A stretch of DNA of 64,000 nucleotides, from positions 21,105-85,104 of the forward strand of contig JAHFSU010000002.1 in NCBI GenBank assembly GCA_023265595.1. Direction: 5' to 3'. Numbering within the stretch: position 1 is the stretch's first letter; each line of letters begins with the position of its first letter. This DNA is from Deltaproteobacteria bacterium. GTDB taxonomy: Bacteria; UBA10199; SPLOWO2-01-44-7. Below the pieces are notes generated by a model. That model searched no databases, was not told the origin of the DNA, and saw only the letters and a list, made by a program, of their open reading frames with translations. Made by a program: the position numbers and the translations under genes. Positions 10,006 to 54,612 of the stretch are shown piece after piece.

Positions 10006-10077
10006 GGTCAAATTTGCGTCACCCACAATCGTCAAAATTTTGACGATTTAGGGGACGTTCCACCAAAATTTTGACGC
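10006..10077. promoter_or_regulatory. Cluster of three related palindromic sites (core TCAAAATTTTGACG; 10030-10045 is a perfect 16-bp palindrome CGTCAAAATTTTGACG) in the receiver/kinase intergenic region
   Basis: Seen directly. Sites at ~10007 (degenerate), 10030-10045 (perfect) and 10063-10076 (one arm imperfect). They lie 150-200 bp upstream of the kinase start at 9883 and just 3' of the receiver gene. Confidence 0.4.
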
Positions 10078-17745: not shown

Positions 17746-17842
17746 GACGGTTGCAGAACGTAGCCGCTACTTATTGCAACGTCAAACAAAAAACAAACGC
17801 CAGACGATCCGGCTGTCTGGCGCTTGGAAGCGAGGTTGGTTT

Positions 17843-19543
17843 TTATTTGGTACGAATCAAAATCCCAAATCCATCGGTAGAACCACTGCTGCTGAAATCG
17901 AGTTTGCCGCTGACATTCGATACTTTATAAAATCTCGCGGCAGAAGAGGCGGTGGTGGAGCTTTGAGAACCGCTGAAACTCTTGACCGACACGCCGGAGA
18001 GTTTGGTTCCGCGATTATCTTGCGCACTGCAGCTCAAGCAGACACCGCTCAAATTGCCGGTCGCAGAATCGGCCACTCGGGGTTGATAGGTAAACCGACG
18101 ATCTTGGCTCACTCCTCTGTCGGTCATCGCCAGCGCGGCCGACCATCTCAGAAAAAATTCACCGAACTGGTCAAAATCACCGGCACGCCCGCCGAAGGCT
18201 GCTTCAATGCCTCGGACACCGGTGTTGCTGCTTTGCAACAATTTGGCCAAAAAGGCCTTCGGATTTTCCGCCTGTTCATAAAGATATCTGAGAAAAAGAT
18301 AAGCGCCGCCGCGGGTTGCTAAATTAGGTGATTTAGAGGTTGTCAAAGGATACGCTGACGGGTTCTGCAGATAGAGGGCATAGCGCGAGGGATTTTCCTG
18401 ATTTTGCCCCATCATATCTTCAGCCAAATGAGACAACCCCTCGTTGAGCCATGCCTCTTCGGAACTCCCTTTGTTGACGAAAACATGCTGATTGTAACTA
18501 ATCGCATGTTGCAACTCATGCGGCAAAACGGCGGGGATTAAATTCGACATCGCAAACGATTTAGAAACAGTCGCACCATATTCACCCTTCGGATCCGGAA
18601 CCATAATGTAGAGAATTTCCATATGATTGCTCGCCGCATTCGATGAAGAATTGGAATAGAGATCGGTTGCGTTAAAAAATCCGGTTACGATACCGCCGCC
18701 CAGCGCCCCTAATTTATTGACTTGGGGTGTGAACAACACAATCACCTTGCCGTCATTGTTGACATCGGAGAGAGAACCAAACAAGGCCTCTTCCTTTGAT
18801 ACGGTTTCATCGAACTGCCGGCAAAAGCCGTCCACTTCAGCAGAAGAAAGCATTTCAGTGGTGACCCGTTTGTCGACATAAAAAGCGACATTATTCCGAA
18901 CACATTCGGCCACCGCATCGACACTGACCGAACTGGAGGTGGAACTTAAACTGGCCAGCACTTTAAAGGATTGTTCACTCCCTTCGGAAATGCTGGGACT
19001 GACACCGGTAGAAATCGATTTGGCCATCGACAAGGACTCTGCTTCAGAAGAAATTTCCAATGTCTCCAATTCTTTTTCTTTCAAACGGAGCGATTCATGA
19101 AACTGTTCGGTAATATCGTTAACCTCTTCAGCATGGACAGCCAGAGATTTGGAAAGTGTCGGATCTTCTTCCAGATCAAACTCAGCCTCCGAAAGATCGC
19201 CGTTGATTTGAACGGAAAAATTGCTGCTGTTGGAGGAGGTATTCGCCACAACAAAAATAAATTCTGATTGACTCTCAACCCCTGCAAAATCGAGCGATTT
19301 GGAGCTATTTAAATCGACATATAAAAGATCACCGGTTCCTAATTGTTTCGGTTGGGAATAGATATTGGTAACGGTCACGCCACCGCTATTACCGGCTCCG
19401 GAATCGGAGCCTCCACCGGAGCCACCGAGTAACGATTTGGATTCGGAAACCCCGCCTGCTTGACTTCCACAACCTGTCTCTATCATCACCAAACCGATTC
19501 CGATCATTAAAATAATCTGTTTAATATATCGATTGGCAACCAT
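17843..19543 (-). CDS. Secreted lipoprotein with an HExxH motif (PHELQHAISYNQH); putative zinc metallopeptidase
   Basis: Lipobox …LVMIETGC at the chosen start (Met 10 of the track ORF, preceded by a GAGGA SD). Driven by a σ54 promoter. Confidence 0.5.
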   Translation of the reverse strand: MVANRYIKQIILMIGIGLVMIETGCGSQAGGVSESKSLLGGSGGGSDSGAGNSGGVTVTNIYSQPKQLGTGDLLYVDLNSSKSLDFAGVESQSEFIFVVANTSSNSSNFSVQINGDLSEAEFDLEEDPTLSKSLAVHAEEVNDITEQFHESLRLKEKELETLEISSEAESLSMAKSISTGVSPSISEGSEQSFKVLASLSSTSSSVSVDAVAECVRNNVAFYVDKRVTTEMLSSAEVDGFCRQFDETVSKEEALFGSLSDVNNDGKVIVLFTPQVNKLGALGGGIVTGFFNATDLYSNSSSNAASNHMEILYIMVPDPKGEYGATVSKSFAMSNLIPAVLPHELQHAISYNQHVFVNKGSSEEAWLNEGLSHLAEDMMGQNQENPSRYALYLQNPSAYPLTTSKSPNLATRGGAYLFLRYLYEQAENPKAFLAKLLQSSNTGVRGIEAAFGGRAGDFDQFGEFFLRWSAALAMTDRGVSQDRRFTYQPRVADSATGNLSGVCLSCSAQDNRGTKLSGVSVKSFSGSQSSTTASSAARFYKVSNVSGKLDFSSSGSTDGFGILIRTK

Positions 19544-19577
19544 TTGATTATCCTCGCTTTCTTGCTTCAAGCCTTAG

Positions 19578-19598
19578 AAAAGCAAGTGGCGTGCCAAT
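19578..19598 (-). promoter_or_regulatory. σ54 (RpoN) promoter: TGGCACGCCACTTGCT on the minus strand (−24 GG / −12 GC with canonical spacing)
   Basis: Plus strand reads AGCAAGTGGCGTGCCA. The reverse complement is TGGCAC-GCCAC-TTGCT, ~30-50 nt upstream of the lipoprotein start. It is 16/17 identical to the flp promoter at 54458-54476. Confidence 0.6.
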
Positions 19599-19813
19599 CC
19601 GATCTTTTTGATAAAATTTTTTATTTCATTTTATATTTCAATGAGTTGAACTACATAAAAATTTCTGATTCTAAATATAGATGAGTGTAAAAAAACCCAT
19701 TTATTAAAAATGTGTTGATTCACTGCGTTAAAAATATGAAAAATGGCTTATTTTTCGAGACATTAACTATAAAAGATATGGGTACTAAAACACCCAAATG
19801 AATAACAAGGTGA

Positions 19814-19836
19814 CATATGGTAGCTGCTACCATATG
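19814..19836. promoter_or_regulatory. Perfect 23-bp palindrome CATATGGTAGC-T-GCTACCATATG, 11 nt upstream of the radical SAM gene start
   Basis: Seen directly. 11-bp arms are exact reverse complements. It overlaps the expected RBS/5'UTR and follows a 245-bp AT-rich intergenic region. Confidence 0.4.
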
Positions 19837-19846
19837 CCACTCTGAC

Positions 19847-20809
19847 ATGATGAAGCGCTATCGGGACCTGTCGGGCTGGCTTAAAGAAAAATATGGGTCA
19901 AAAGTTTTCAAGGTCAGTTTAACCGCCGCCACGACTTGTCCCAATTTAGACGGCAGTCTCGCAACGGGTGGGTGTACTTTTTGCAACGATGCGGCCTATT
20001 CCCCTCTCGCCTTGGCGAAAAACAGGAGACAAAAATCGATTCCCGAACAACTGGCCCAAGGGATGGAGTATGTCAAAAGACGTCATGCCACATCCAAATT
20101 CATCGCTTATTTTCAGAGCTTTACAAGCACCTATGGCGACAAAGAAAAATTGATGGCCAAATTCAGAGAAAGTCTCGATCACCCCGACGTCGTCGGCTTT
20201 GCCCTCTCCACCCGCCCCGATTGCATCGACAAAGATTGGGCCAAAGCCCTTTCCCAATTGGCCGACGGAAAATTGTGTTGGATTGAATTAGGACTGCAAA
20301 GCGCCAACGATCTTATTCTCGCCAAAATCAATCGGTGGCACACCCGATGGCAATTTGGGGAGGCCTTGAAAATTCTTAAAGATCAGAACATCGCCGTCTG
20401 CGCCCATGTTGTTTTGGGTTTGCCGCTCGAGACAAGGCCTGATGTTTTGGAAACGGCCCAATATCTGGCAACACAACCGATCGATGGAATCAAAATTCAC
20501 AATCTCCATGTTGTGAAGGGGACAGCGCTCGCACAAGAATACCAACGGGGTAAATATCAACCCCTTTCCCTGACAACTTTTACCGAATGGGCTGTCGATT
20601 TTTTGGAACAGACCCCGCCCCAGCTTTTGATTCATCGGCTTAATGCCCATGCCCCGAGGCAATTAACTTTGGCCCCCGACTGGTCGGTCAACAAATTGGC
20701 TGTCTTTCGGGCGGTTGAAAAGGAATTGATAAAAAGGGAGAGCTGGCAGGGAAAAGGACTAGGCTTTGCTAGAACCTATCTCATAAATCTGACGAAAGCG
20801 AAATTTTGA
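19847..20809 (+). CDS. Radical SAM protein, TIGR01212 family
   Basis: N-terminal CPNLDGSLATGGCTFCN (the CxxxxxxxGGCxFC cluster of the TIGR01212 family). Start chosen at the MMKRYRDLS Met; the track ORF starts 30 nt earlier inside the palindrome. Confidence 0.8.
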   Translation: MMKRYRDLSGWLKEKYGSKVFKVSLTAATTCPNLDGSLATGGCTFCNDAAYSPLALAKNRRQKSIPEQLAQGMEYVKRRHATSKFIAYFQSFTSTYGDKEKLMAKFRESLDHPDVVGFALSTRPDCIDKDWAKALSQLADGKLCWIELGLQSANDLILAKINRWHTRWQFGEALKILKDQNIAVCAHVVLGLPLETRPDVLETAQYLATQPIDGIKIHNLHVVKGTALAQEYQRGKYQPLSLTTFTEWAVDFLEQTPPQLLIHRLNAHAPRQLTLAPDWSVNKLAVFRAVEKELIKRESWQGKGLGFARTYLINLTKAKF

Positions 20810-46345: not shown

Positions 46346-47039
46346 AATGATTTTCCCAACAGCCGGTCGGATGAGGACTGTCATGGGACAAAACCGCCCT
46401 TGCCTCTTCGGCATCGGGGAAAATGTCCAAAACATGCCCATTTGCCGCCCCTTCTGAACTGGCCAAAATTTTGCCGCTTTCATCAAAACAATAAATTGCC
46501 CCAAGCCCTAGTTTTTTGAGGGATCCGATCCATTCAAAATGCTCCTCTTTTTTTGTTTCACCTTTTTTTTGCAGACGTATTTTTTCGTGCAGAAAAAACC
46601 AGCCCCCTAAACCTAAAAGGGGCGGAAGCAAAAGGGCAAGGCGCAAAAAGAGAAATGGGGGTGAGTCCGGCCGAAATTCCAAAACGACTTTTCCCAGCAT
46701 CTCTTTTTGATCGCTTAAAATAGGTTCTTCAAAAAAGTATTTCCCCTCACCCTTTCCCTCTTCCACAAGGGGAGAGGGAAAACCATAACGGGAAAAGGGG
46801 ACCAAAATTTTTTCCTGCGCATCCAAAATGACGGCATTTTCATTTTCCAAACGGAGCCGTGTCTCCATCTGGTTTTGAAGCGGGTATTGATTCAATGCGG
46901 CGATGTTTTTGACCAACAACCTCCCCTTTTCAAACTCTCTTTGTGAAAAATCGCCCTTCAAAAAATAGAGGGAGAGCCAAATGAAAAAGGCCCAGACCAA
47001 GCAAAATAGAATTACGGAAGTTTTGATATTTTTTTTCAC
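46311..47039 (-). CDS. Hypothetical membrane-anchored protein in the Tad locus; contains the hairpin-repeat-encoded LVEEGKGEGK peptide
   Basis: 242 aa with an N-terminal TM helix. No recognisable family. Confidence 0.4.
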   Translation of the reverse strand: MKKNIKTSVILFCLVWAFFIWLSLYFLKGDFSQREFEKGRLLVKNIAALNQYPLQNQMETRLRLENENAVILDAQEKILVPFSRYGFPSPLVEEGKGEGKYFFEEPILSDQKEMLGKVVLEFRPDSPPFLFLRLALLLPPLLGLGGWFFLHEKIRLQKKGETKKEEHFEWIGSLKKLGLGAIYCFDESGKILASSEGAANGHVLDIFPDAEEARAVLSHDSPHPTGCWENHYGEKRFLVTLS

Positions 47040-47713
47040 AGTTCCCCTTTAAAAAACCGGATCGTCAACGGCGCAAAGAGGGTCAAAAATACCGAAGGGA
47101 AAATGCAAAAGATCATCGGAAAAAGGATTTTTTGCGCCGCTTTGATCCCCATTTTTTCGGCATCCAAAAAACGGCCGGTTCGCATCTGATCAGCGCTGGC
47201 AACTAATACGGGCCCCAAAGAGGTCCCCAACCGAATCGCCTGAACCAAAAAAGAGACGAGGGTTTTGATCTCCGGCAAAGGGGCCCGTGTTTTCAAAGAC
47301 AAAAGGGCCTCTTTGCGCGTTTTTCCCAAACGTAATTCGTGCAACATCCGGTTGAATTCTTCGACAATCCCCTCTTTTGGAAAAACAGCCGCTATTTTTT
47401 GAATGGCCTGCATCATTTCCATCCCCGCCGCAACAGAAATCGCTAACAGGTCCATCACGAGGGGCAAATCACGCCGCATTTTCAAAAATCTTTCTTTCTT
47501 TTCAAAATAGTTATGAACCCACAGGACCAAACAACCGGGAAAGAGCCATAAAAAAACAAAATTTCTTTTTTCAGAAGCAGAAAAATGGGAGAGCCACTTT
47601 AAACGACTTTTCTCCTGTTCCCTTTTTTGAAGAAGAAAGTGGACAAAAATTCCGGAAGCGGCGGCCATAATCATGGAAAAAATGGCGATCATGGCTCCCT
47701 TCCGGAGGCCCAT
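47036..47713 (-). CDS. tadC: Tad pilus inner-membrane platform protein (TadC-like, T2SS-F domain)
   Basis: 225 aa. 3 TM helices plus a cytoplasmic helical domain typical of GspF/TadB/TadC. Operon context. Confidence 0.65.
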   Translation of the reverse strand: MGLRKGAMIAIFSMIMAAASGIFVHFLLQKREQEKSRLKWLSHFSASEKRNFVFLWLFPGCLVLWVHNYFEKKERFLKMRRDLPLVMDLLAISVAAGMEMMQAIQKIAAVFPKEGIVEEFNRMLHELRLGKTRKEALLSLKTRAPLPEIKTLVSFLVQAIRLGTSLGPVLVASADQMRTGRFLDAEKMGIKAAQKILFPMIFCIFPSVFLTLFAPLTIRFFKGEL

Positions 47714-48285
47714 TCTATCTGAATCGACTCTTTGATCCCATTTTTAACAAGAAACCCTGAGAGAAGAATTTTTTCGGCAACGGTTCCATTTTTGTCCGGG
47801 AGAAAAAGGGATTGCCCCCCTCCTTCCAGAAAAATTTCTTGGATGCCAAAAGGACGAAGGAGCCCGTTGATGCGGATCTCTTCTTCATTCAACGGGAGCG
47901 GCTCCATTTTTACCTTGAGGAGCCATTGGGTTTCAAAAGTTTGAAGTTTATCTCCTAAAAAATCTTCTTCCTTTTTCAAAACGGTTTCCGGCTTTGTTTC
48001 AATCGGGGGTATGCCGAGACATTCCAAATTCAACGGCGCCTTTTCAAGACAACAAGCCGACAAATCTCCCCTGCGCCGATCAATCACCCATTCCGAACCG
48101 ATTTTTCTCCCCCATAATTCTTTTCTGACCCCGTTTCGTATTTCAAGATAACCGACATGATCGACCGACTTTTTGGAAACGGCCAAAGCCGGAAAAGAAG
48201 AAAAAAGAGCAAAAAAAATAAAAACCGCCTTAGTTTTGGAACAAATTTTTTTCATATCCTTATCCTCGCCAGTTTTCGCATCCAC
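47689..48285 (-). CDS. Hypothetical secreted protein between tadB and tadC
   Basis: 198 aa with a signal peptide (…FFALFSSFPALA). Confidence 0.4.
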   Translation of the reverse strand: MDAKTGEDKDMKKICSKTKAVFIFFALFSSFPALAVSKKSVDHVGYLEIRNGVRKELWGRKIGSEWVIDRRRGDLSACCLEKAPLNLECLGIPPIETKPETVLKKEEDFLGDKLQTFETQWLLKVKMEPLPLNEEEIRINGLLRPFGIQEIFLEGGGQSLFLPDKNGTVAEKILLSGFLVKNGIKESIQIEWASGREP

Positions 48286-48830
48286 AAATAGCCGCCCAAA
48301 TCGAGGCCAAGGATCAGAAAAACGGAAAGCCAGCCGAGAGGATGCGTGAAAAGGGGTGAAATAAACTCGGGAGAAATAAAAGCGATACAGGCCGCCAAGC
48401 CAAACGGCATGACCGCTAAAATGGCTCCCTGAGCCATTCCTTGGGCGGTCAACAGATGAATCTTCGCTGAAACACGTTGTCTCTCCCTCAAAATGCGCGA
48501 GAGATTTTCAAGATGTCCGACCAAATTACCGCCGATGCCGCGGAGCAGAACAATCGAATGGGCCATCAAGGAAAAATCGGGGCTGTTGAGGCGATGGGCC
48601 GAATCCAAAAGGGCTTCGTCCAAAGAATGACCCAGTTTTGTTTTTTCCAAAATGGCGGCTACCGTCTCTTTGAATGGTGACGGCCCCTCCTCAGCTGCCA
48701 TCTGAAACGCCTGATGCATTCCGAGACCGGCCTTTAAGGCATTGGCCATGAGCAAAAATCCGTCAGGAAGAACCGCTTCGAGTTTTTTCGGATGTTTTTC
48801 AAACATCGATCTCCTCCAAAGTAAAAACAT
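48252..48830 (-). CDS. tadB: Tad pilus inner-membrane platform protein (TadB-like, T2SS-F domain)
   Basis: 192 aa. A GspF-domain helical segment followed by TM helices. Confidence 0.65.
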   Translation of the reverse strand: MFLLWRRSMFEKHPKKLEAVLPDGFLLMANALKAGLGMHQAFQMAAEEGPSPFKETVAAILEKTKLGHSLDEALLDSAHRLNSPDFSLMAHSIVLLRGIGGNLVGHLENLSRILRERQRVSAKIHLLTAQGMAQGAILAVMPFGLAACIAFISPEFISPLFTHPLGWLSVFLILGLDLGGYLWMRKLARIRI

Positions 48831-50652
48831 CCCCTTCCATCCCCGATAATTTTACAATCGATACAATTTTCCGATTGCCATCCGCCCCCCTCGCAATCTG
48901 AACAACAATATCGATTGCCGAGGCGATCTGTTCCCGAATGGCTTTTGAGGGGAGTTCCATCTCCGCAAACATCACGAGCGTTTCAAGCCGCGAGAGGGCA
49001 TCGCGCGGCGAATTGGCATGAAGCGTTGTGAGCGAGCCTTCATGCCCCGTGTTCATCGCCTGCAGCATATCGAGCGCCTCCGCCCCGCGACATTCGCCGA
49101 CAACGATCCGGTCCGGGCGCATCCGCAGCGCGTTCCGAACCAGATCACGAATCGCAATGGCCCCTTTCCCTTCTATATTTGCGGGCCGCGACTCGAGGCG
49201 AACCACATGCGGCTGGTTGAGTCTCAATTCCGCCGCATCTTCAATCGTGATAATCCGTTCCTGTTCCGAAATAAAAGAGGAGAGGAGATTCAACAGGGTT
49301 GTTTTTCCCGAACCGGTGCCGCCCGAAACCAGAATATTCATTTTGTTTAAAACGGCCTCTTTCAAAAAAGAGAGTGTCTGCGCCGAGGCCGTTTGCGAAC
49401 GGATCAGATCGTCGGGCCCCAGCATCTCTTTCGAAAAACGCCGGATACTGATGATGGGGCCATTGAGCGCCAATGGCGGAATGATGATATTGACACGCGA
49501 ACCGCACGGCAGTCTGGCATCGACCATTGGAGAAAAAACATCGACCCGCCTGCCGCAAGGGGCCAGAATGCGCTCGATCGCCTTATCCAAAAAATCGCGA
49601 TTTGAAAAATGAAGCGCTGTTTTTTTGAGTCGTCCTTTTTCCTCCACATAAATCGGATCACATCCGTTCACCAAAATTTCGTTGTTGTCGGGAGACTGAA
49701 GCAGTTTTTCGAGAGGGCCCAATCCCAAAAGTTCATCGAGCAATTCTTCGGTCAGATTTGTTCGGTCGGCTTCTTGCGGAATGGTTTGTGTCTGCCGGCT
49801 TAACACCTCATGAACGATCATCCTTATTTTGTCACGAATCCCCTCTTCATTTTGATCGGCCTTTAATCCTTTCGCCTCCATCTGCTGTTTGATATTTTTA
49901 AGCAGCATCCCTTTGAAAGCGGTCTCCTGCGGCATCCTTTTTTCTTCCACGGAAAAGGTCGGCGCCGTTTTTTTTTCACCCAGCAGCCTTTCCGGAAGAA
50001 AGGGGGCCAAATCACCATTCGGGGAGACCAGCCCCTTCAATTTAAGGTGGGCCTCTTCAACATTTTTTCCAAAACAGGTGATCGCGGCAAAATGCTCGAC
50101 ATCGCCTGCCTTCAAAAAAGTTTTTGCATCCCAACGGTTTGCCAAAAACCCGAGCCGCTGTAATGGAAAAAAGCTCGCGGCCAATGCTTCCGTCTTGCGC
50201 TTTAGCGCCTGCAACTGCGTCATGACGGGATTTAAAATAAAAAGGAGGAGGGATGATTTTTTGAAAAATTCGATCGCAACCGGATGCCAGCGGGAACCGA
50301 AATCACCAAGAATCCAATCGAAACAGGAAAAAATGGGATCAGAGGATTTCGCAAACGAGCCGTCGGTCGGCAAAAGTTGCAGCACACTCAAGTCCAAAGA
50401 CCCGCGCAAAAAAGAGGCAACCATGCCGCCGGTGGCAATCCGAGGCAGCTTTTGCAAATCGGCCACGGTCCGCCACGGATGGGAATCCTCGCTGATGATT
50501 TTGAGATCGCCCGGATGATCGACATCCCCGTCGATCAGCAAAACACGCCCGCCGTTTTTGGAAAGGGTGGCCGCCAGCTCTAAACAAAAATGGGAAGCCC
50601 CCACTCCGTCTTTCACCCCCATCACCGATATAAAATGTTGTCCCTTCATCAT
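48799..50652 (-). CDS. cpaF: CpaF/TadA secretion ATPase fused to an N-terminal degenerate CpaE/TadZ (ParA/MinD-like) domain
   Basis: The C-terminal ~330 aa are canonical CpaF (Walker A GGTGSGKTT, Asp box, Walker B RIVVGECRG, His box LTTLHAN). The N-terminal ~300 aa have a ParA-like fold pattern, but the P-loop is degraded to GVKDGVGAS. Confidence 0.8.
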   Translation of the reverse strand: MMKGQHFISVMGVKDGVGASHFCLELAATLSKNGGRVLLIDGDVDHPGDLKIISEDSHPWRTVADLQKLPRIATGGMVASFLRGSLDLSVLQLLPTDGSFAKSSDPIFSCFDWILGDFGSRWHPVAIEFFKKSSLLLFILNPVMTQLQALKRKTEALAASFFPLQRLGFLANRWDAKTFLKAGDVEHFAAITCFGKNVEEAHLKLKGLVSPNGDLAPFLPERLLGEKKTAPTFSVEEKRMPQETAFKGMLLKNIKQQMEAKGLKADQNEEGIRDKIRMIVHEVLSRQTQTIPQEADRTNLTEELLDELLGLGPLEKLLQSPDNNEILVNGCDPIYVEEKGRLKKTALHFSNRDFLDKAIERILAPCGRRVDVFSPMVDARLPCGSRVNIIIPPLALNGPIISIRRFSKEMLGPDDLIRSQTASAQTLSFLKEAVLNKMNILVSGGTGSGKTTLLNLLSSFISEQERIITIEDAAELRLNQPHVVRLESRPANIEGKGAIAIRDLVRNALRMRPDRIVVGECRGAEALDMLQAMNTGHEGSLTTLHANSPRDALSRLETLVMFAEMELPSKAIREQIASAIDIVVQIARGADGNRKIVSIVKLSGMEGDVFTLEEIDV

Positions 50653-52106
50653 TTTTTCTCTTTTAAATATTGATGATATTCCTTCGCGGAGCGCTCTCGA
50701 ATCATCTCTTCCTCTCTCTTTTTCCAATTTTCATTAAAAGAGGAAACCGCCGGCGGCGACGGCGCCGTTGCAAGGCGGGGAAGCGCGAAAATCACAAATT
50801 CCGACTTGTCACTTTGAAAATCTTTCGACAAAAAAAGCGTGAAAAGGGCGGAAGAGGTCGCCATATTTTTCGGGACGCGATGGTAGGTCTTTACATCGCG
50901 ATTACTCAAAATCCCCCCCAAGATTACCGCCTGACCGGAAGGGACATAGGCGGTCGTATTGATCGAATGGGTGTTGATGCCGCCGTCGATATGAGCCGAC
51001 GGCGTGGAGATTTGCGCGGAGAGTTTCAAATCGATATCCGATCCCGCAGCAACCGGTTGCGTCTCCATTTTAACGCCGACCTCTTTGAACTGGACATTTT
51101 GCTGCGCAAAATAAGGGACCTGAACGCCGCTGAAAAACTGAGCCGCATCGCCGCTTTTCACAAAGAGTGTCGGGTTTTCCAAAACACGGCCGAGCCCATG
51201 CTCCCGCACAAAACGGATTTTGGGGAGAAGGTTGAAAATAAAACCGACCAGCGATTGTCCCAAACCGCCAATCCCTCCGCCGGCGCCGCTGATGCCACCG
51301 ACCGCTTCTTCCCCGCTCGACGGAAAGGAACCCGGGGCCCATTGAATTCCAAACGTTCTTAAGGCCGATTTTTGAATCTCCATAAAATAGAGATCGATTT
51401 GAATCATCGCCTGCTTGCCGACATTCCGATCGGTCGGTTTGATCTCAATCAGATTCAGCGCATTCGGATCGTAGAGTTTTGCAATTTCATACGCCTTGTT
51501 TGCGGCGGCCGGGCTAAAGGCGATCCCTTCCAGAATCACACGGTCCCTCACGGAGCGGACTTTGATGCCGGGGGTGGCGATTGCATTTTCAATCCGGTTG
51601 GTCAGTGTTTCCAAAACCGGTTTGGCCAAGACGACCTCATTCATTATTTGCGGATATTTTGCGGCAAAGGCCTGTAATCTTTTGTAATCAGATGGCGAAG
51701 GGGCTTCGCCGATCATCCGAATGAAATCATCTTGAACTAAAAATTCCACACTCCGGATGGAGGCAAACGATTGTTTGGCCTCGCTCAGAACGGCATTCAA
51801 ATTGGCGCTATGAACGGTGACCGGAACGACCTCCTTCAAATCCCCTTTTTTGTCCCAGAGGGTGAGCAGCGTAAACCCTTCATTTTTTCCGTTGAGATAG
51901 AGCGATTTTCTCTCATCTTGAATTACAAAATCGGCCACTTTGGGGTCGGCAATCGCCACATCGCCGATTTCATAATCGGTTTGAACAACCGACGATTCCC
52001 CCTTTGCAATGGTTTGCGGAGAAATGGCGGCACTTTGCGCGGAAGCACCCAGCCCCAAGCCCCCAATTCCAAATAAAATCCATATTCCAAATATTTGAAG
52101 CTTCAT
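50649..52106 (-). CDS. cpaC: Tad pilus secretin (CpaC/RcpA)
   Basis: Signal peptide. The C-terminal secretin domain (…VLENPTLFVKSGDAAQFFSGVQVPY…GGILSNRD…) ends with a low-complexity tail. Confidence 0.8.
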   Translation of the reverse strand: MKLQIFGIWILFGIGGLGLGASAQSAAISPQTIAKGESSVVQTDYEIGDVAIADPKVADFVIQDERKSLYLNGKNEGFTLLTLWDKKGDLKEVVPVTVHSANLNAVLSEAKQSFASIRSVEFLVQDDFIRMIGEAPSPSDYKRLQAFAAKYPQIMNEVVLAKPVLETLTNRIENAIATPGIKVRSVRDRVILEGIAFSPAAANKAYEIAKLYDPNALNLIEIKPTDRNVGKQAMIQIDLYFMEIQKSALRTFGIQWAPGSFPSSGEEAVGGISGAGGGIGGLGQSLVGFIFNLLPKIRFVREHGLGRVLENPTLFVKSGDAAQFFSGVQVPYFAQQNVQFKEVGVKMETQPVAAGSDIDLKLSAQISTPSAHIDGGINTHSINTTAYVPSGQAVILGGILSNRDVKTYHRVPKNMATSSALFTLFLSKDFQSDKSEFVIFALPRLATAPSPPAVSSFNENWKKREEEMIRERSAKEYHQYLKEKK

Positions 52107-52107
52107 T

Positions 52108-52929
52108 TTATTTTCCTCGGTACTCCCTGTATTGAGATTTTGCAGACCGTCCTTTAAAACCGACAACATCGATTGCGGAGGTCGGTTGTAAATCGAGCGG
52201 CTCCTCTTCCCACTGCGGTCTTAATGAAAACGAAATCGTTCCCTGCTGTTTTGCAAATTCAACTTCCTGAACCTGTTTAGGGGTCAAGGCCAGGGTCAAT
52301 GTTTTTTTGCGCTGATGACTTAAGCTATTTGCAAAAAGGGCTGTCCCTAAAACATTTTTTTCAGAAGCTGTTTTAGAAGCCCCCGCATCGGTATCGACCG
52401 CCAACACCAAAACCCGTTGCACCAGCGTGTGGGTTGTTGTCTGCAAATTGGCGGTCGTATCTTCCATTTCGAAAGTGACCAAAATATCGACAAAATTATT
52501 GGGACGAATCAGACCCGAAACACCGGACACCTCATCCGTTTCGACACTAAAAGCCCGCATCCCTTTCGCAATTTTTTGACTGATCCCTCCTTTTTCACCG
52601 ACCGGAAGAAGTTTTGTCTGCAAAATCTGCTCCCCTTTTAACAACGGAGAGACGGCGACAAGCCCTTCCACCTCTTCAAAAGAAGAGGCGGCCGCGGGTT
52701 GGACAAAACGGCGTGGGAATTGATTTAGAGCCAATTGGGATCGGCTGAGTCTCTCCCCTTCCGAAATATCTTTTTTGGCAACAACCGCAACAACCGGTTC
52801 TTCCAGTGCATTCAGCCGCATCTCCTTTGTTTTGAAAAATCCAAAGAGCAAAATGAACGCGGCCAGCCCGGAAGCAACGGCAATCAGCAACGGTTTTTTC
52901 GGATTCATTTTGTTCTCCTTGTCTTGCAA
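52108..52929 (-). CDS. cpaB: Flp pilus assembly protein CpaB/RcpC (SAF domain)
   Basis: 273 aa. N-terminal TM anchor. SAF-like N-domain and β-rich C-domain. Confidence 0.7.
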   Translation of the reverse strand: MQDKENKMNPKKPLLIAVASGLAAFILLFGFFKTKEMRLNALEEPVVAVVAKKDISEGERLSRSQLALNQFPRRFVQPAAASSFEEVEGLVAVSPLLKGEQILQTKLLPVGEKGGISQKIAKGMRAFSVETDEVSGVSGLIRPNNFVDILVTFEMEDTTANLQTTTHTLVQRVLVLAVDTDAGASKTASEKNVLGTALFANSLSHQRKKTLTLALTPKQVQEVEFAKQQGTISFSLRPQWEEEPLDLQPTSAIDVVGFKGRSAKSQYREYRGK

Positions 52930-53162
52930 AAATTTTCAATCACCGCGTGCACAAGACAGGGCCGCTCCAAAACGGGAAGCACCTCCTGTCGTTCACGAAG
53001 CGTTGCCGTATCCCTATATTGACGGGCCATCAGCGCTTTCTGTCTAAAATGGGTCCGTTGAAAGAGATAAAAAAGTCCCGACAAAATGGCCGAGGCAAAT
53101 AAAAGAACAACGGCCATTTCGATGACGGCCGAACCCTTAGTGTTGGACTTGAGACGGATCAA
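52905..53162 (-). CDS. TadE-like pseudopilin/minor pilin
   Basis: 85 aa. N-terminal KGSAVIEMAVVLLFASAIL resembles the TadE/TadF ERG-AVE(F)A motif. Confidence 0.5.
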   Translation of the reverse strand: MIRLKSNTKGSAVIEMAVVLLFASAILSGLFYLFQRTHFRQKALMARQYRDTATLRERQEVLPVLERPCLVHAVIENFCKTRRTK

Positions 53163-53961
53163 AATTCCTCCAATTTTCGTTTCCTTTCAAAAAACCGCCG
53201 TGCGGCAAGGACGACAAAGGGACAAAAGCAGTCTGGTAGCAAAAAACCTCTCCAGACTCTCTTTGAAAAGCGCCGTTCCAAACGGAACCGCCAAAAGGTT
53301 GCGCGGCAGAGACCGCACGCATCGTCGATTTCCAATGCGGAAAATCCCATTCAGCACCGGCCGCAAAAGCAACCACGGCGCTGGCATCCTTCACAAAGGC
53401 CATCCTTCCCTCCAACTCGGTTTTCCCGATTTTTTGATGACCGGTCGGATCAAAAAGGATGCCTCCGTTAATTTTATCGAACGCAAAATCTTTTTTGGGC
53501 CCATCCAAAATAGTGGGGGCCACGGCATAAAGCGGCACCAAACGAGCGTTCGGAATCTCTTTTTGTAATTCGTTCTCCGCAATCTCAAAGCTGAGCGACA
53601 GCATCCTCTCTGTTTTTTCAGACATCGCATCGTAGAGCCGATTTTGATCGGCCCAAAGCCGGCGGACACGGTCTTTTGGTTTTTCAAGATTCGGCTGGCT
53701 GACATTTTTAAAATCTTTTTCAAGTTCTAAAAAAAGTTCATAGGCCTTCCGATTTTCCAGCACCCATTCGTTCATCATTTCCGTCATCAAACTGGCGGCC
53801 GCAAAAACGCCGCGGTCCAAAGCCCCCTGAAGTTTCATTTTTGAAAAAACAATTTTAGAAAATTGGGCCAAGGCCGCCGCAGCAAACGCAAAGGCGATCA
53901 TAAAAAAGAGAAACAAAATAAAAATTTGGCCTTTCTGATTTATTTTTTGCATCATGGGCAC
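53137..53961 (-). CDS. TadG-like pilus-assembly protein
   Basis: 274 aa. N-terminal hydrophobic TadE/G-like segment (KGQIFILFLFFMIAFAFAAAAL). Confidence 0.45.
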   Translation of the reverse strand: MPMMQKINQKGQIFILFLFFMIAFAFAAAALAQFSKIVFSKMKLQGALDRGVFAAASLMTEMMNEWVLENRKAYELFLELEKDFKNVSQPNLEKPKDRVRRLWADQNRLYDAMSEKTERMLSLSFEIAENELQKEIPNARLVPLYAVAPTILDGPKKDFAFDKINGGILFDPTGHQKIGKTELEGRMAFVKDASAVVAFAAGAEWDFPHWKSTMRAVSAAQPFGGSVWNGAFQRESGEVFCYQTAFVPLSSLPHGGFLKGNENWRNFDPSQVQH

Positions 53962-54263
53962 TCTCCCTCATCGCCGCAAAAGACGATTGGGTTATCCATT
54001 TTCTCTTTTTCATCCCAAGCGACGCGCAGTCCTTTTAATGTCGGGTAAAAAGGGGCCGAGGCATTGCCAAAACGACCGTCATCGGCCTTGTAAACCACGG
54101 CTTTTCTGGCTTTGCCGAATGCTTTGAGTTGAGTGAGGTGGGCTTTGAATAAGGACAAAGTCATACCGATGAGGCCCGCCAAAATTAATATAAACCACGG
54201 CATCACCAAAACAAACTCCACGGCAAAGGCGCCCCGAACCGATCTATTTTTCAGGACGCGCAT
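53952..54263 (-). CDS. TadE-like pseudopilin
   Basis: The internal start MRVLKNRSVRGAFAVEFVLVMPWFILIL matches the TadE N-terminal motif. The track ORF extends upstream through flp in another frame. Confidence 0.5.
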   Translation of the reverse strand: MRVLKNRSVRGAFAVEFVLVMPWFILILAGLIGMTLSLFKAHLTQLKAFGKARKAVVYKADDGRFGNASAPFYPTLKGLRVAWDEKEKMDNPIVFCGDEGECP

Positions 54264-54432
54264 TGTCATAAGTGGTCTCCAAAGTTTTGATGACATTATC
54301 GCCCAACGCATCGACCCCCTGTTTGAATTTGGGCAACAGAGTCGATGCCGCCGCAACAAGCCCCAGCACGACAATCGCAATGATCAGCATGTATTCCGTT
54401 GCCGATTGTCCTTTTTGATTTTTTAAAATCAT
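54244..54432 (-). CDS. flp: Flp-family type IVb pilin
   Basis: 62 aa. KGQSATEYMLIIAIVVLGLVAA matches the Flp G-x4-EY processing motif plus hydrophobic helix. A perfect AAAGGAGG SD lies 7 nt upstream. Confidence 0.8.
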   Translation of the reverse strand: MILKNQKGQSATEYMLIIAIVVLGLVAAASTLLPKFKQGVDALGDNVIKTLETTYDNARPEK

Positions 54433-54457
54433 GACCGCCTCCTTTAACCTTTAAGCA

Positions 54458-54476
54458 AAAGCAAATGGCGTGCCAG
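54458..54476 (-). promoter_or_regulatory. σ54 (RpoN) promoter TGGCACGCCATTTGCT driving flp
   Basis: Plus strand reads AGCAAATGGCGTGCCA. The reverse complement has GG and GC with the canonical 10-nt spacing, ~18-45 nt upstream of the flp ATG. It is near-identical to the promoter at 19578-19598. Confidence 0.65.
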
Positions 54477-54612
54477 CCGAACGGGACAAATAATTGGGTT
54501 TGAAGCGGGAGGGGTGACGGTTTTGGGACAGGGGATGAAGTGATTACGTCAGCATATAGTGCCAGGCACTAGGTGACACTTTTGTTTTTCTTTGAGGGCG
54601 CTAATGAGTTTT

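Follow-up and report, generated by a model that had tools for sequence, protein, structure and literature searches.

Near-identical probable σ54 promoters with different upstream elements before an M30-like lipoprotein gene and a Flp pilin gene of an uncultivated bacterium

The DNA analyzed here is a 64-kb stretch of contig JAHFSU010000002.1 (positions 21,105 to 85,104 of the forward strand; assembly GCA_023265595.1, "Deltaproteobacteria bacterium"), which we refer to as the window. It contains two near-identical sequences that are very probably σ54 (−24/−12) promoters, one upstream of flp, the pilin gene that opens a tad pilus operon, and the other upstream of a gene for a lipoprotein-type zinc metallopeptidase resembling the M30 family. 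A comparison of the regions upstream of both promoters, in the window and in related genomes, favors the reading that the two sites are functional σ54-dependent promoters and that each is served by its own enhancer, a reading to which we assign a probability of roughly 0.6. The two genes would most likely be switched on by different bacterial enhancer-binding proteins (bEBPs), both encoded outside the window, and the near identity of the cores would represent convergence on the σ54 consensus of the clade and not a shared regulator.

The two promoter cores and their conservation

Both strands of the window, 128 kb in total, were scanned for the consensus TGGCAC-N5-TTGCW. Only the two sites under discussion matched with zero or one mismatch, and both are perfect matches on the minus strand: the lipoprotein site at 19581..19596 (TGGCACGCCACTTGCT, TGGCAC-GCCAC-TTGCT) and the flp site at 54460..54475 (TGGCACGCCATTTGCT, TGGCAC-GCCAT-TTGCT). 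Sites with two mismatches numbered 31, which is chance level (33 sites in all versus 29 expected). The 16-mer shared by the two promoters, at up to two mismatches, occurred exactly twice in the window versus 0.03 occurrences expected. The GG and GC elements fall at 19595-19594 and 19583-19582 in the lipoprotein promoter and at 54474-54473 and 54462-54461 in the flp promoter, with the canonical spacing of exactly 10 nt in each. Both sites are intergenic and lie on the same strand as the downstream gene. The lipoprotein site ends 37 nt before the ATG at 19543, with a Shine-Dalgarno sequence, GAGGA, at 19555..19551, and the flp site ends 27 nt before the ATG at 54432, with AAAGGAGG (AAGGAGG) at 54445..54438. 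With GC set as −13/−12, transcription is predicted to start near 19570 for the lipoprotein gene and near 54449 for flp, giving predicted 5' untranslated regions (UTRs) of 27 and 17 nt.

A first-pass annotation of this DNA had described twin, near-identical σ54-type sequences upstream of flp and of an HExxH lipoprotein gene, about 35 kb apart, with canonical −24 GG/−12 GC spacing and close to Shine-Dalgarno sites. All of this was borne out: the sites are 34.9 kb apart, and both Shine-Dalgarno motifs lie within the predicted 5' UTRs. The near identity of the cores likewise stands, although the figure given for it, 16/17, does not; the measured value is 15/16, or 19/20 when the subsequent TTTT is included. 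Consensus scanning of the region found no σ70-like promoter upstream of flp and a single weak one near the lipoprotein gene, inside the coding start. Rfam searches gave no match in the flp promoter region and, in the lipoprotein promoter region, only a wcaG match on the opposite strand and below the gathering score (24.6 bits versus 42), which we judged to be due to chance.

The lipoprotein promoter could be followed through many relatives. We took 67 loci encoding relatives of the lipoprotein from species-representative genomes, and the orthologous set used for counting promoters comprised 34 loci with 33 to 69% protein identity. Of these, 33 have a σ54 site with no more than one mismatch at a distance of at most about 40 nt from the estimated start. 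Among the orthologs the five-base spacer is free to vary (GGACC, ATCAC, GTTCC, GCCCC, and others), and a site-anchored alignment shows near-maximal information content at TGGCAC and at TTGCT and practically none in the flanks, as would be expected if purifying selection acted on the elements recognized by σ54. Because the orthologs conserve the site while its spacer varies, the lipoprotein promoter is very likely real. Perfect consensus sites are also concentrated at these genes: 454 kb of sequence (loci L001 to L036) held 27, with 23 directly before an ortholog and 2 before a tandem paralog. The scan of the fetched loci found no RpoN box, and the presence of σ54 in the lineage is indirectly implied by the selection on the core, which is seen in more than 30 species. 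For the lipoprotein promoters, the consensus of the clade reads TGGCACGccCCTTGCT, and the lipoprotein promoter of another species (L005, TGGCACGCCAATTGCT) is as close to the flp core of the window as is the window's own lipoprotein promoter. The two window cores appear to be near identical because both are close to this clade consensus. In two loci (L019:5522 and L020:9757), a tandem M30-like paralog lies directly downstream of the first copy, each with its own perfect σ54 promoter.

The flp promoter belongs to a tad locus that directly follows the murG-murC-murB-ddl-ftsQAZ genes (the dcw cluster) and a LysM/SLT gene. Tad loci of relatives were collected through homologs of CpaB, and in seven related tad lineages the first flp gene is preceded by a σ54 site with zero to two mismatches. 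Sites with zero or one mismatch recur in L079, L129, L072, L080, and L108 despite diverged flanks. The site is TGGCACGCCAAATGCA in L079, where promoter and flp are separated by the insertion of an open reading frame (ORF) that resembles 23S_rRNA_IVP and has inverted repeats on both sides; TGGCATCCTTTTTGCT in L129, 18 nt before the ATG; and TGGCATCCTTCCTGCA in L074; L080 and L108 have one mismatch each. The contigs resembling RIFCSPLOWO2_12_FULL_44_12 (L071 to L073 and L077) have two sites: a perfect one, TGGCACGGGACTTGCT, ahead of a DUF4160/DUF2442 pair that has been inserted, and a proximal one, TGGCATGTTCCCTGCA. Judged by these loci, the flp promoter is conserved within the lineage, over a much narrower range than the lipoprotein promoter.

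In L079 (180-680), L129 (3012-3458), L072 (358-835), and L074 (3517-4126), the insertion of small cassettes has separated the flp genes from the LysM/SLT gene or from the σ54 promoter. The types seen are the 23S_rRNA_IVP-like four-helix ORF with flanking inverted repeats, the DUF4160/DUF2442 pair, and a PIN toxin pair, and the junction between promoter and flp appears to be an insertion hot spot. In L071, another σ54-like site, TGGCATGCCTTTTGCT (953-968, minus strand), points away from tad at the annotated start of an otherwise unannotated 246-amino-acid gene, which suggests divergent σ54 promoters in that locus.

Upstream elements and the activators they may bind

The −24/−12 core of such promoters is recognized by σ54, and the specificity of the bEBP lies in upstream activator sequences (UAS). 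Two candidate UAS precede the lipoprotein promoter on the minus strand. The proximal one, GGGTTTTTTTACACTC at 19683..19698, has one mismatch to the 16-bp inverted repeat GGGT-N8-ACCC and lies 102 nt upstream of the −24 element; the distal one, GGGTGTTTTAGTACCC at 19780..19795, is a perfect copy 199 nt upstream of the −24 element and about 20 nt short of where the divergent gene mnmL begins. We counted this repeat, at up to one mismatch, in 28 orthologous upstream regions, with positions measured from the first T of TGGCAC, and compared the counts with those from shuffled sequences. The repeat is present at −94..−106 in 17 of the 28 regions (shuffle mean, 0.03; maximum, 2), and a second copy is present at −197..−215 in 10 (shuffle mean, 0.06). 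Between enhancer and promoter, at −52, lies CAACTCATTGAAA (19636..19648, minus strand), one mismatch from the reverse orientation of WATCAANNNNTTR, which we take to be the consensus of integration host factor (IHF) and on which the label IHF-like is based. A site of the same kind, again in reverse orientation and with one mismatch, is found at −48..−53 in 15 of the 28 regions.

With its two dyads spaced by about 10 helical turns, its bend site, and its −24/−12 core, the lipoprotein promoter would have a classical enhancer-dependent arrangement. Among σ54 promoters, nifH with NifA and glnAp2 with NtrC depend on an enhancer and have activator sites in tandem and a bend made by IHF. The lipoprotein promoter resembles such Klebsiella nifH/NifA and glnAp2/NtrC-type promoters in its −24/−12 core, its two dyads roughly 100 to 200 bp upstream, and the IHF-like site between them, and differs from them in its target, here an M30-type metalloprotease lipoprotein in uncultivated "Deltaproteobacteria bacterium" metagenome-assembled genomes (MAGs). 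We know of no characterized bEBP to which GGGT-N8-ACCC could be assigned.

Upstream of flp, GGGT-N8-ACCC is missing at up to one mismatch within 260 to 400 nt in the window, and likewise in L079, L074, L080, L108, and L129, and a consensus scan of the flp upstream region found no IHF-like site. What the region does contain is a tentative upstream activator region at 54544..54577 (minus strand), made up of short motifs seen in few loci: GTCACCTAG at 54577..54569 (−102), with GTCACCTAT at −100 in L129; a palindrome, AGTGCC-T-GGCACT, at 54570..54558; and CTGACGTAA at 54552..54544 (−77). The motif C[TC]GAC[GT] occurs at −89..−91 in L079, L072b, L074, and L080. Tentatively, then, flp would carry upstream elements (GTCACCTA and TGACGTAA, at about −75 to −105) different from those of the lipoprotein promoter. 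The palindrome at 54558-54570, about 85 nt upstream of the flp promoter, includes a second TGGCAC, followed by TATATGCT; we rejected it as a σ54 core because its GG-to-GC spacing is 8 and not 10; perhaps it is a relic or a site for a regulator.

Under the preferred reading, the GGGT-N8-ACCC dyads about 100 and 200 bp upstream of the lipoprotein promoter would bind an oligomerizing bEBP, and the IHF-like site at −52 would bend the DNA and loop the activator onto the closed complex of σ54 RNA polymerase at TGGCAC-N5-TTGCT. ATP hydrolysis by the bEBP would open the promoter, with transcription beginning near 19570. The flp-tad operon would have an equally good σ54 core with other upstream elements and would respond to another bEBP.

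No bEBP is encoded in the window, nor is rpoN. All gene-like ORFs of at least 90 amino acids were scanned against Pfam, and none had a Sigma54_activat domain; a six-frame scan of the window for Walker A together with GAFTGA was also empty. The signaling proteins are four single-domain receivers, one histidine kinase, and one PAS-histidine kinase-GGDEF protein, and the AAA+ proteins are Lon, ClpX, and a 1,125-amino-acid protein with a generic AAA domain. The first-pass annotation had likewise seen no bEBP in the window and none among its six signaling proteins, and both scans agree. The only fetched loci with bEBP signatures are L042 (~4841), L059 (~4594), and L039 (~4866), from Nitrospirae-type and other MAGs, where a gene with Walker A and GAFSGA or GAFTGA is found at a distance of about 3 kb from a remote homolog of the metalloprotease (28 to 38% identity).

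The window has a third σ54-like site, AGGCATATTATTTGCA, at 9911-9926 on the minus strand, 28 nt before the ATG at 9883. The operon that begins there encodes the histidine kinase, the PAS-histidine kinase-GGDEF protein, two receivers, a GH114 glycosidase, and a TPR protein, and its synteny is not kept in the fetched loci. About 100 to 140 nt upstream of the site lies a perfect palindrome, CGTCAAAATTTTGACG (10030-10045), along with two degenerate copies (10030-10076), which could possibly constitute a separate enhancer.

Several further elements were seen upstream of the lipoprotein gene and its relatives. In L006 to L016 and L029, additional conserved elements occupy the stretch from about −188 to −108 of the lipoprotein promoter: palindromes of the form GTCA-N6-TGAC (e.g., GTCAAATCGATGAC), which in deeper relatives come directly after the distal GGGT site, and dyads resembling TATCA-N4-TGATA between the two GGGT-N8-ACCC sites. 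We discarded GTCA-N6-TGAC as a shared enhancer; it occurs at some deeper lipoprotein orthologs (about −188) and, as a perfect palindrome, before the histidine kinase operon, but at neither window promoter. In the window itself, a palindrome with a 14-bp stem, GTGGCATATGGTAGC-AGC-TACCATATGTCAC (19810-19840), overlaps the start codon of the divergent mnmL/ytqA, a tRNA-modification radical SAM gene at 19817-20809.

Some observations weigh against two functional promoters with separate enhancers. The flp enhancer rests on few loci and short motifs, without statistical support. Eight more distant tad loci have no σ54 site within 600 nt upstream of flp, and the proximal flp site of two relatives has two mismatches and lies about 15 nt from the ATG, which leaves almost no leader. 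A consensus scan found no terminator between the LysM/SLT gene and flp, and because of this, read-through from the LysM/SLT gene is possible and may contribute to flp transcription. A sequence of the form TGTCACCT[T/A]GT, 12 nt long, is common to the upstream regions of both window promoters. Finally, in L072, and identically in L071, L073, and L077, about five tandem copies of (CCGT)CTGGGTTTCTT(CTG) at 100-240 precede the distal tad σ54 promoter, and the array ends in GGGT-N10-ACCC at about −106. This array could be a multi-site enhancer, and it hints that a GGGT-binding activator could act at that distal tad promoter.

The last two observations bear on an alternative that the first-pass annotation had put forward, namely, that two copies this similar imply a common bEBP. 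One DNA-binding activator would then serve both promoters, and the Tad pilus and the metalloprotease would form a single surface-colonization regulon. The consensus cores, whose spacers (GCCAC and GCCAT) are almost alike, the 12-mer, and the GGGT-rich array of L072 can all be read in its favor, as can the nature of the two products, both cell-surface factors, since a comparative study concluded that σ54 regulons are centered on functions of the cell exterior, pili and lipoproteins among them (PMC3162934). However, a core that is read by σ54 is uninformative on the activator, and lipoprotein promoters of other species are just as similar to the flp core. The 12-mer was rejected as a common enhancer: about 0.3 matches are expected by chance, it overlaps the start codon of mnmL, and the lipoprotein orthologs do not keep it. 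The difference in breadth of conservation between the two promoters also argues against a common bEBP, as does the lack, upstream of flp in the window and in the five related loci, of GGGT-N8-ACCC together with the IHF-like site. With different upstream elements at the two promoters, a shared activator is not supported, and we regard it as improbable. The first-pass interpretation survives in part: that both genes are members of the σ54 regulon is plausible, and their co-regulation by a single activator is disfavored.

A somewhat less probable alternative does away with enhancers. Helicobacter FlgR and Chlamydia CtcC are bEBPs that have no DNA-binding domain and act from solution, and an activator of this type would co-regulate all σ54 promoters of the genome by default. 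This would accommodate a flp promoter that has neither a clear, statistically supported enhancer nor an IHF-like site, and the fact that no bEBP gene adjoins either target. At the lipoprotein promoter, however, the positionally fixed pair of inverted repeats and the IHF-like site form the signature of an enhancer-bound activator, and the third σ54-like site has yet another upstream palindrome, suggesting several specific activators.

Least probable of all is that only the lipoprotein site works and that the flp site is a chance match or relic, with flp-tad transcribed by read-through from the LysM/SLT gene and the dcw cluster or from an unrecognized σ70 promoter: the missing terminator, the eight distant tad loci without a site, and the degenerate sites too near the ATG in some relatives would fit, but chance would produce a perfect consensus match far less often than once per window, sites with zero or one mismatch recur before the first flp gene in five loci with diverged flanks, no σ70-like promoter was found, and σ54 control of Flp-type pilins has precedent (PMC3333781).

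The metallopeptidase and the Tad operon

The lipoprotein gene occupies 17843..19543 on the minus strand and encodes 566 amino acids with the start annotated by NCBI, or 554 with that of the protein collection, where exact look-ups with starts giving 566 and 575 amino acids had no match. The product carries a signal peptide, whose Cys25 is invariant, along with the motif HELQH...WLNEG, and the residues of its zinc site, H342-E343-xx-H346 and E368, are all invariant in the alignment. A profile built from 43 homologs matches lugdulysin (PDB 7bb8) with an E value of 9e-26 over about 310 residues. An AlphaFold2 model (predicted local distance difference test score [pLDDT], 82.5) gave 7bb8_A as the best Foldseek match, with an E value of 2.4e-17 and a template modeling score (TM-score) of 0.69, normalized to the target. 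Because of the profile match and the match of the predicted fold, we assign the protein as an M30-like (lugdulysin/hyicolysin-like) zinc metalloprotease of lipoprotein type, which sharpens the earlier description of a secreted, metalloprotease-like HExxH lipoprotein. Pfam has no significant family for it, even at E values up to 10, and NCBIfam gave only a weak match to MXAN_6640_HExxH. All 404 homologs of the lipoprotein are MAG proteins, mostly labeled "Deltaproteobacteria bacterium," from groundwater and sediment.

The likeness to the staphylococcal enzymes lugdulysin and hyicolysin (MEROPS M30) consists of the HExxH motif with the downstream WLNE glutamate, the profile, and the fold. The window protein differs in being about 20% identical to lugdulysin, in having a lipoprotein-type signal with the invariant Cys, and in the additional N- and C-terminal β-domains carried by its family. 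A further difference concerns the catalytic tyrosine of M30, Tyr315 in lugdulysin, which is the residue mutated in PDB 7bb9. In a hidden Markov model (HMM) alignment, the family of the window protein has an invariant arginine, Arg411, at this position and a conserved tyrosine four residues further on. We know of no staphylococcal M30 enzyme for which expression from a σ54 promoter is a feature. A terminator-like hairpin with a T-run, detected by consensus scan only, directly follows the stop codon (17799..17813, minus strand) and suggests that the lipoprotein gene is a monocistronic unit.

The flp gene (54244..54432, minus strand) encodes a Flp-type prepilin of 62 amino acids, MILKNQKG/QSATEYMLIIAIVVLGLV, as identified from its translation, the G-x4-EY motif, and its tad context. 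The processing motif KG/QSATEY is followed by a hydrophobic helix (KG-QSATEY-MLIIAIVVLGLV); the Pfam model Flp_Fap scored 21.8 bits, below its cutoff of 32.2 bits. The tad assembly genes at 47036..54380 on the same strand, assigned by Pfam, NCBIfam, and the gene calls on an identical ENA contig, encode TadE-like and TadG-like proteins, CpaB/RcpC, the secretin CpaC, a TadZ-CpaF fusion ATPase, TadB, the product of an unknown ORF, and TadC. No prepilin peptidase gene (TadV/CpaA) was recognized in this operon. In the fusion (48799-50727, minus strand; 617 to 642 amino acids), a TadZ/CpaE-like (ParA/CbiA) domain is joined to a CpaF (T2SSE) domain, an arrangement that is kept in relatives.

Precedents and biological meaning

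Control of type IVa pilin genes by PilR and σ54 is classical in Pseudomonas, Geobacter, and Myxococcus. For pilins of the Flp/Tad (Cpa/Tad) type, the σ54-dependent response regulator DVU2114 was found to control the genes in Desulfovibrio vulgaris (Rajeev et al. 2011, PMC3333781). The window resembles that system in having a σ54 promoter before the pilin gene that heads a Cpa/Tad-type pilus locus. It differs in that no bEBP gene stands beside the pilin genes, and in lineage and operon organization, with the TadZ-CpaF fusion and the adjoining dcw cluster. Since σ54 control of Flp/Tad pilins was already known, what is new here is the target, an M30-like lipoprotein, together with the enhancer motif and the lineage.

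These observations can be extended to a wider proposal, which we hold tentatively and at a little under even odds. The M30-type lipoprotein would be the fixed target of an undescribed σ54 module, in which tandem GGGT-N8-ACCC sites about 107 bp apart and an IHF-like site are read by a bEBP, across more than 25 species-level MAGs. In the window organism it would stand beside at least two further σ54 units, flp-tad and the histidine kinase/GGDEF/GH114 operon, each with its own enhancer, and together these would make up a multi-activator σ54 network for surface attachment and matrix remodeling.

The finding leaves the current understanding of σ54 biology unchanged. It does correct a common error of reasoning, in that similarity between σ54 cores is no sign of a shared activator. 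The GGGT-N8-ACCC repeat is a testable motif through which the cognate bEBP, along with its regulon, could be sought in these MAGs. For an uncultivated lineage of groundwater and sediment, the analysis provides a well-supported regulatory prediction, in which σ54 would stand over both a Tad pilus and a conserved secreted or surface-bound M30-like metalloprotease.

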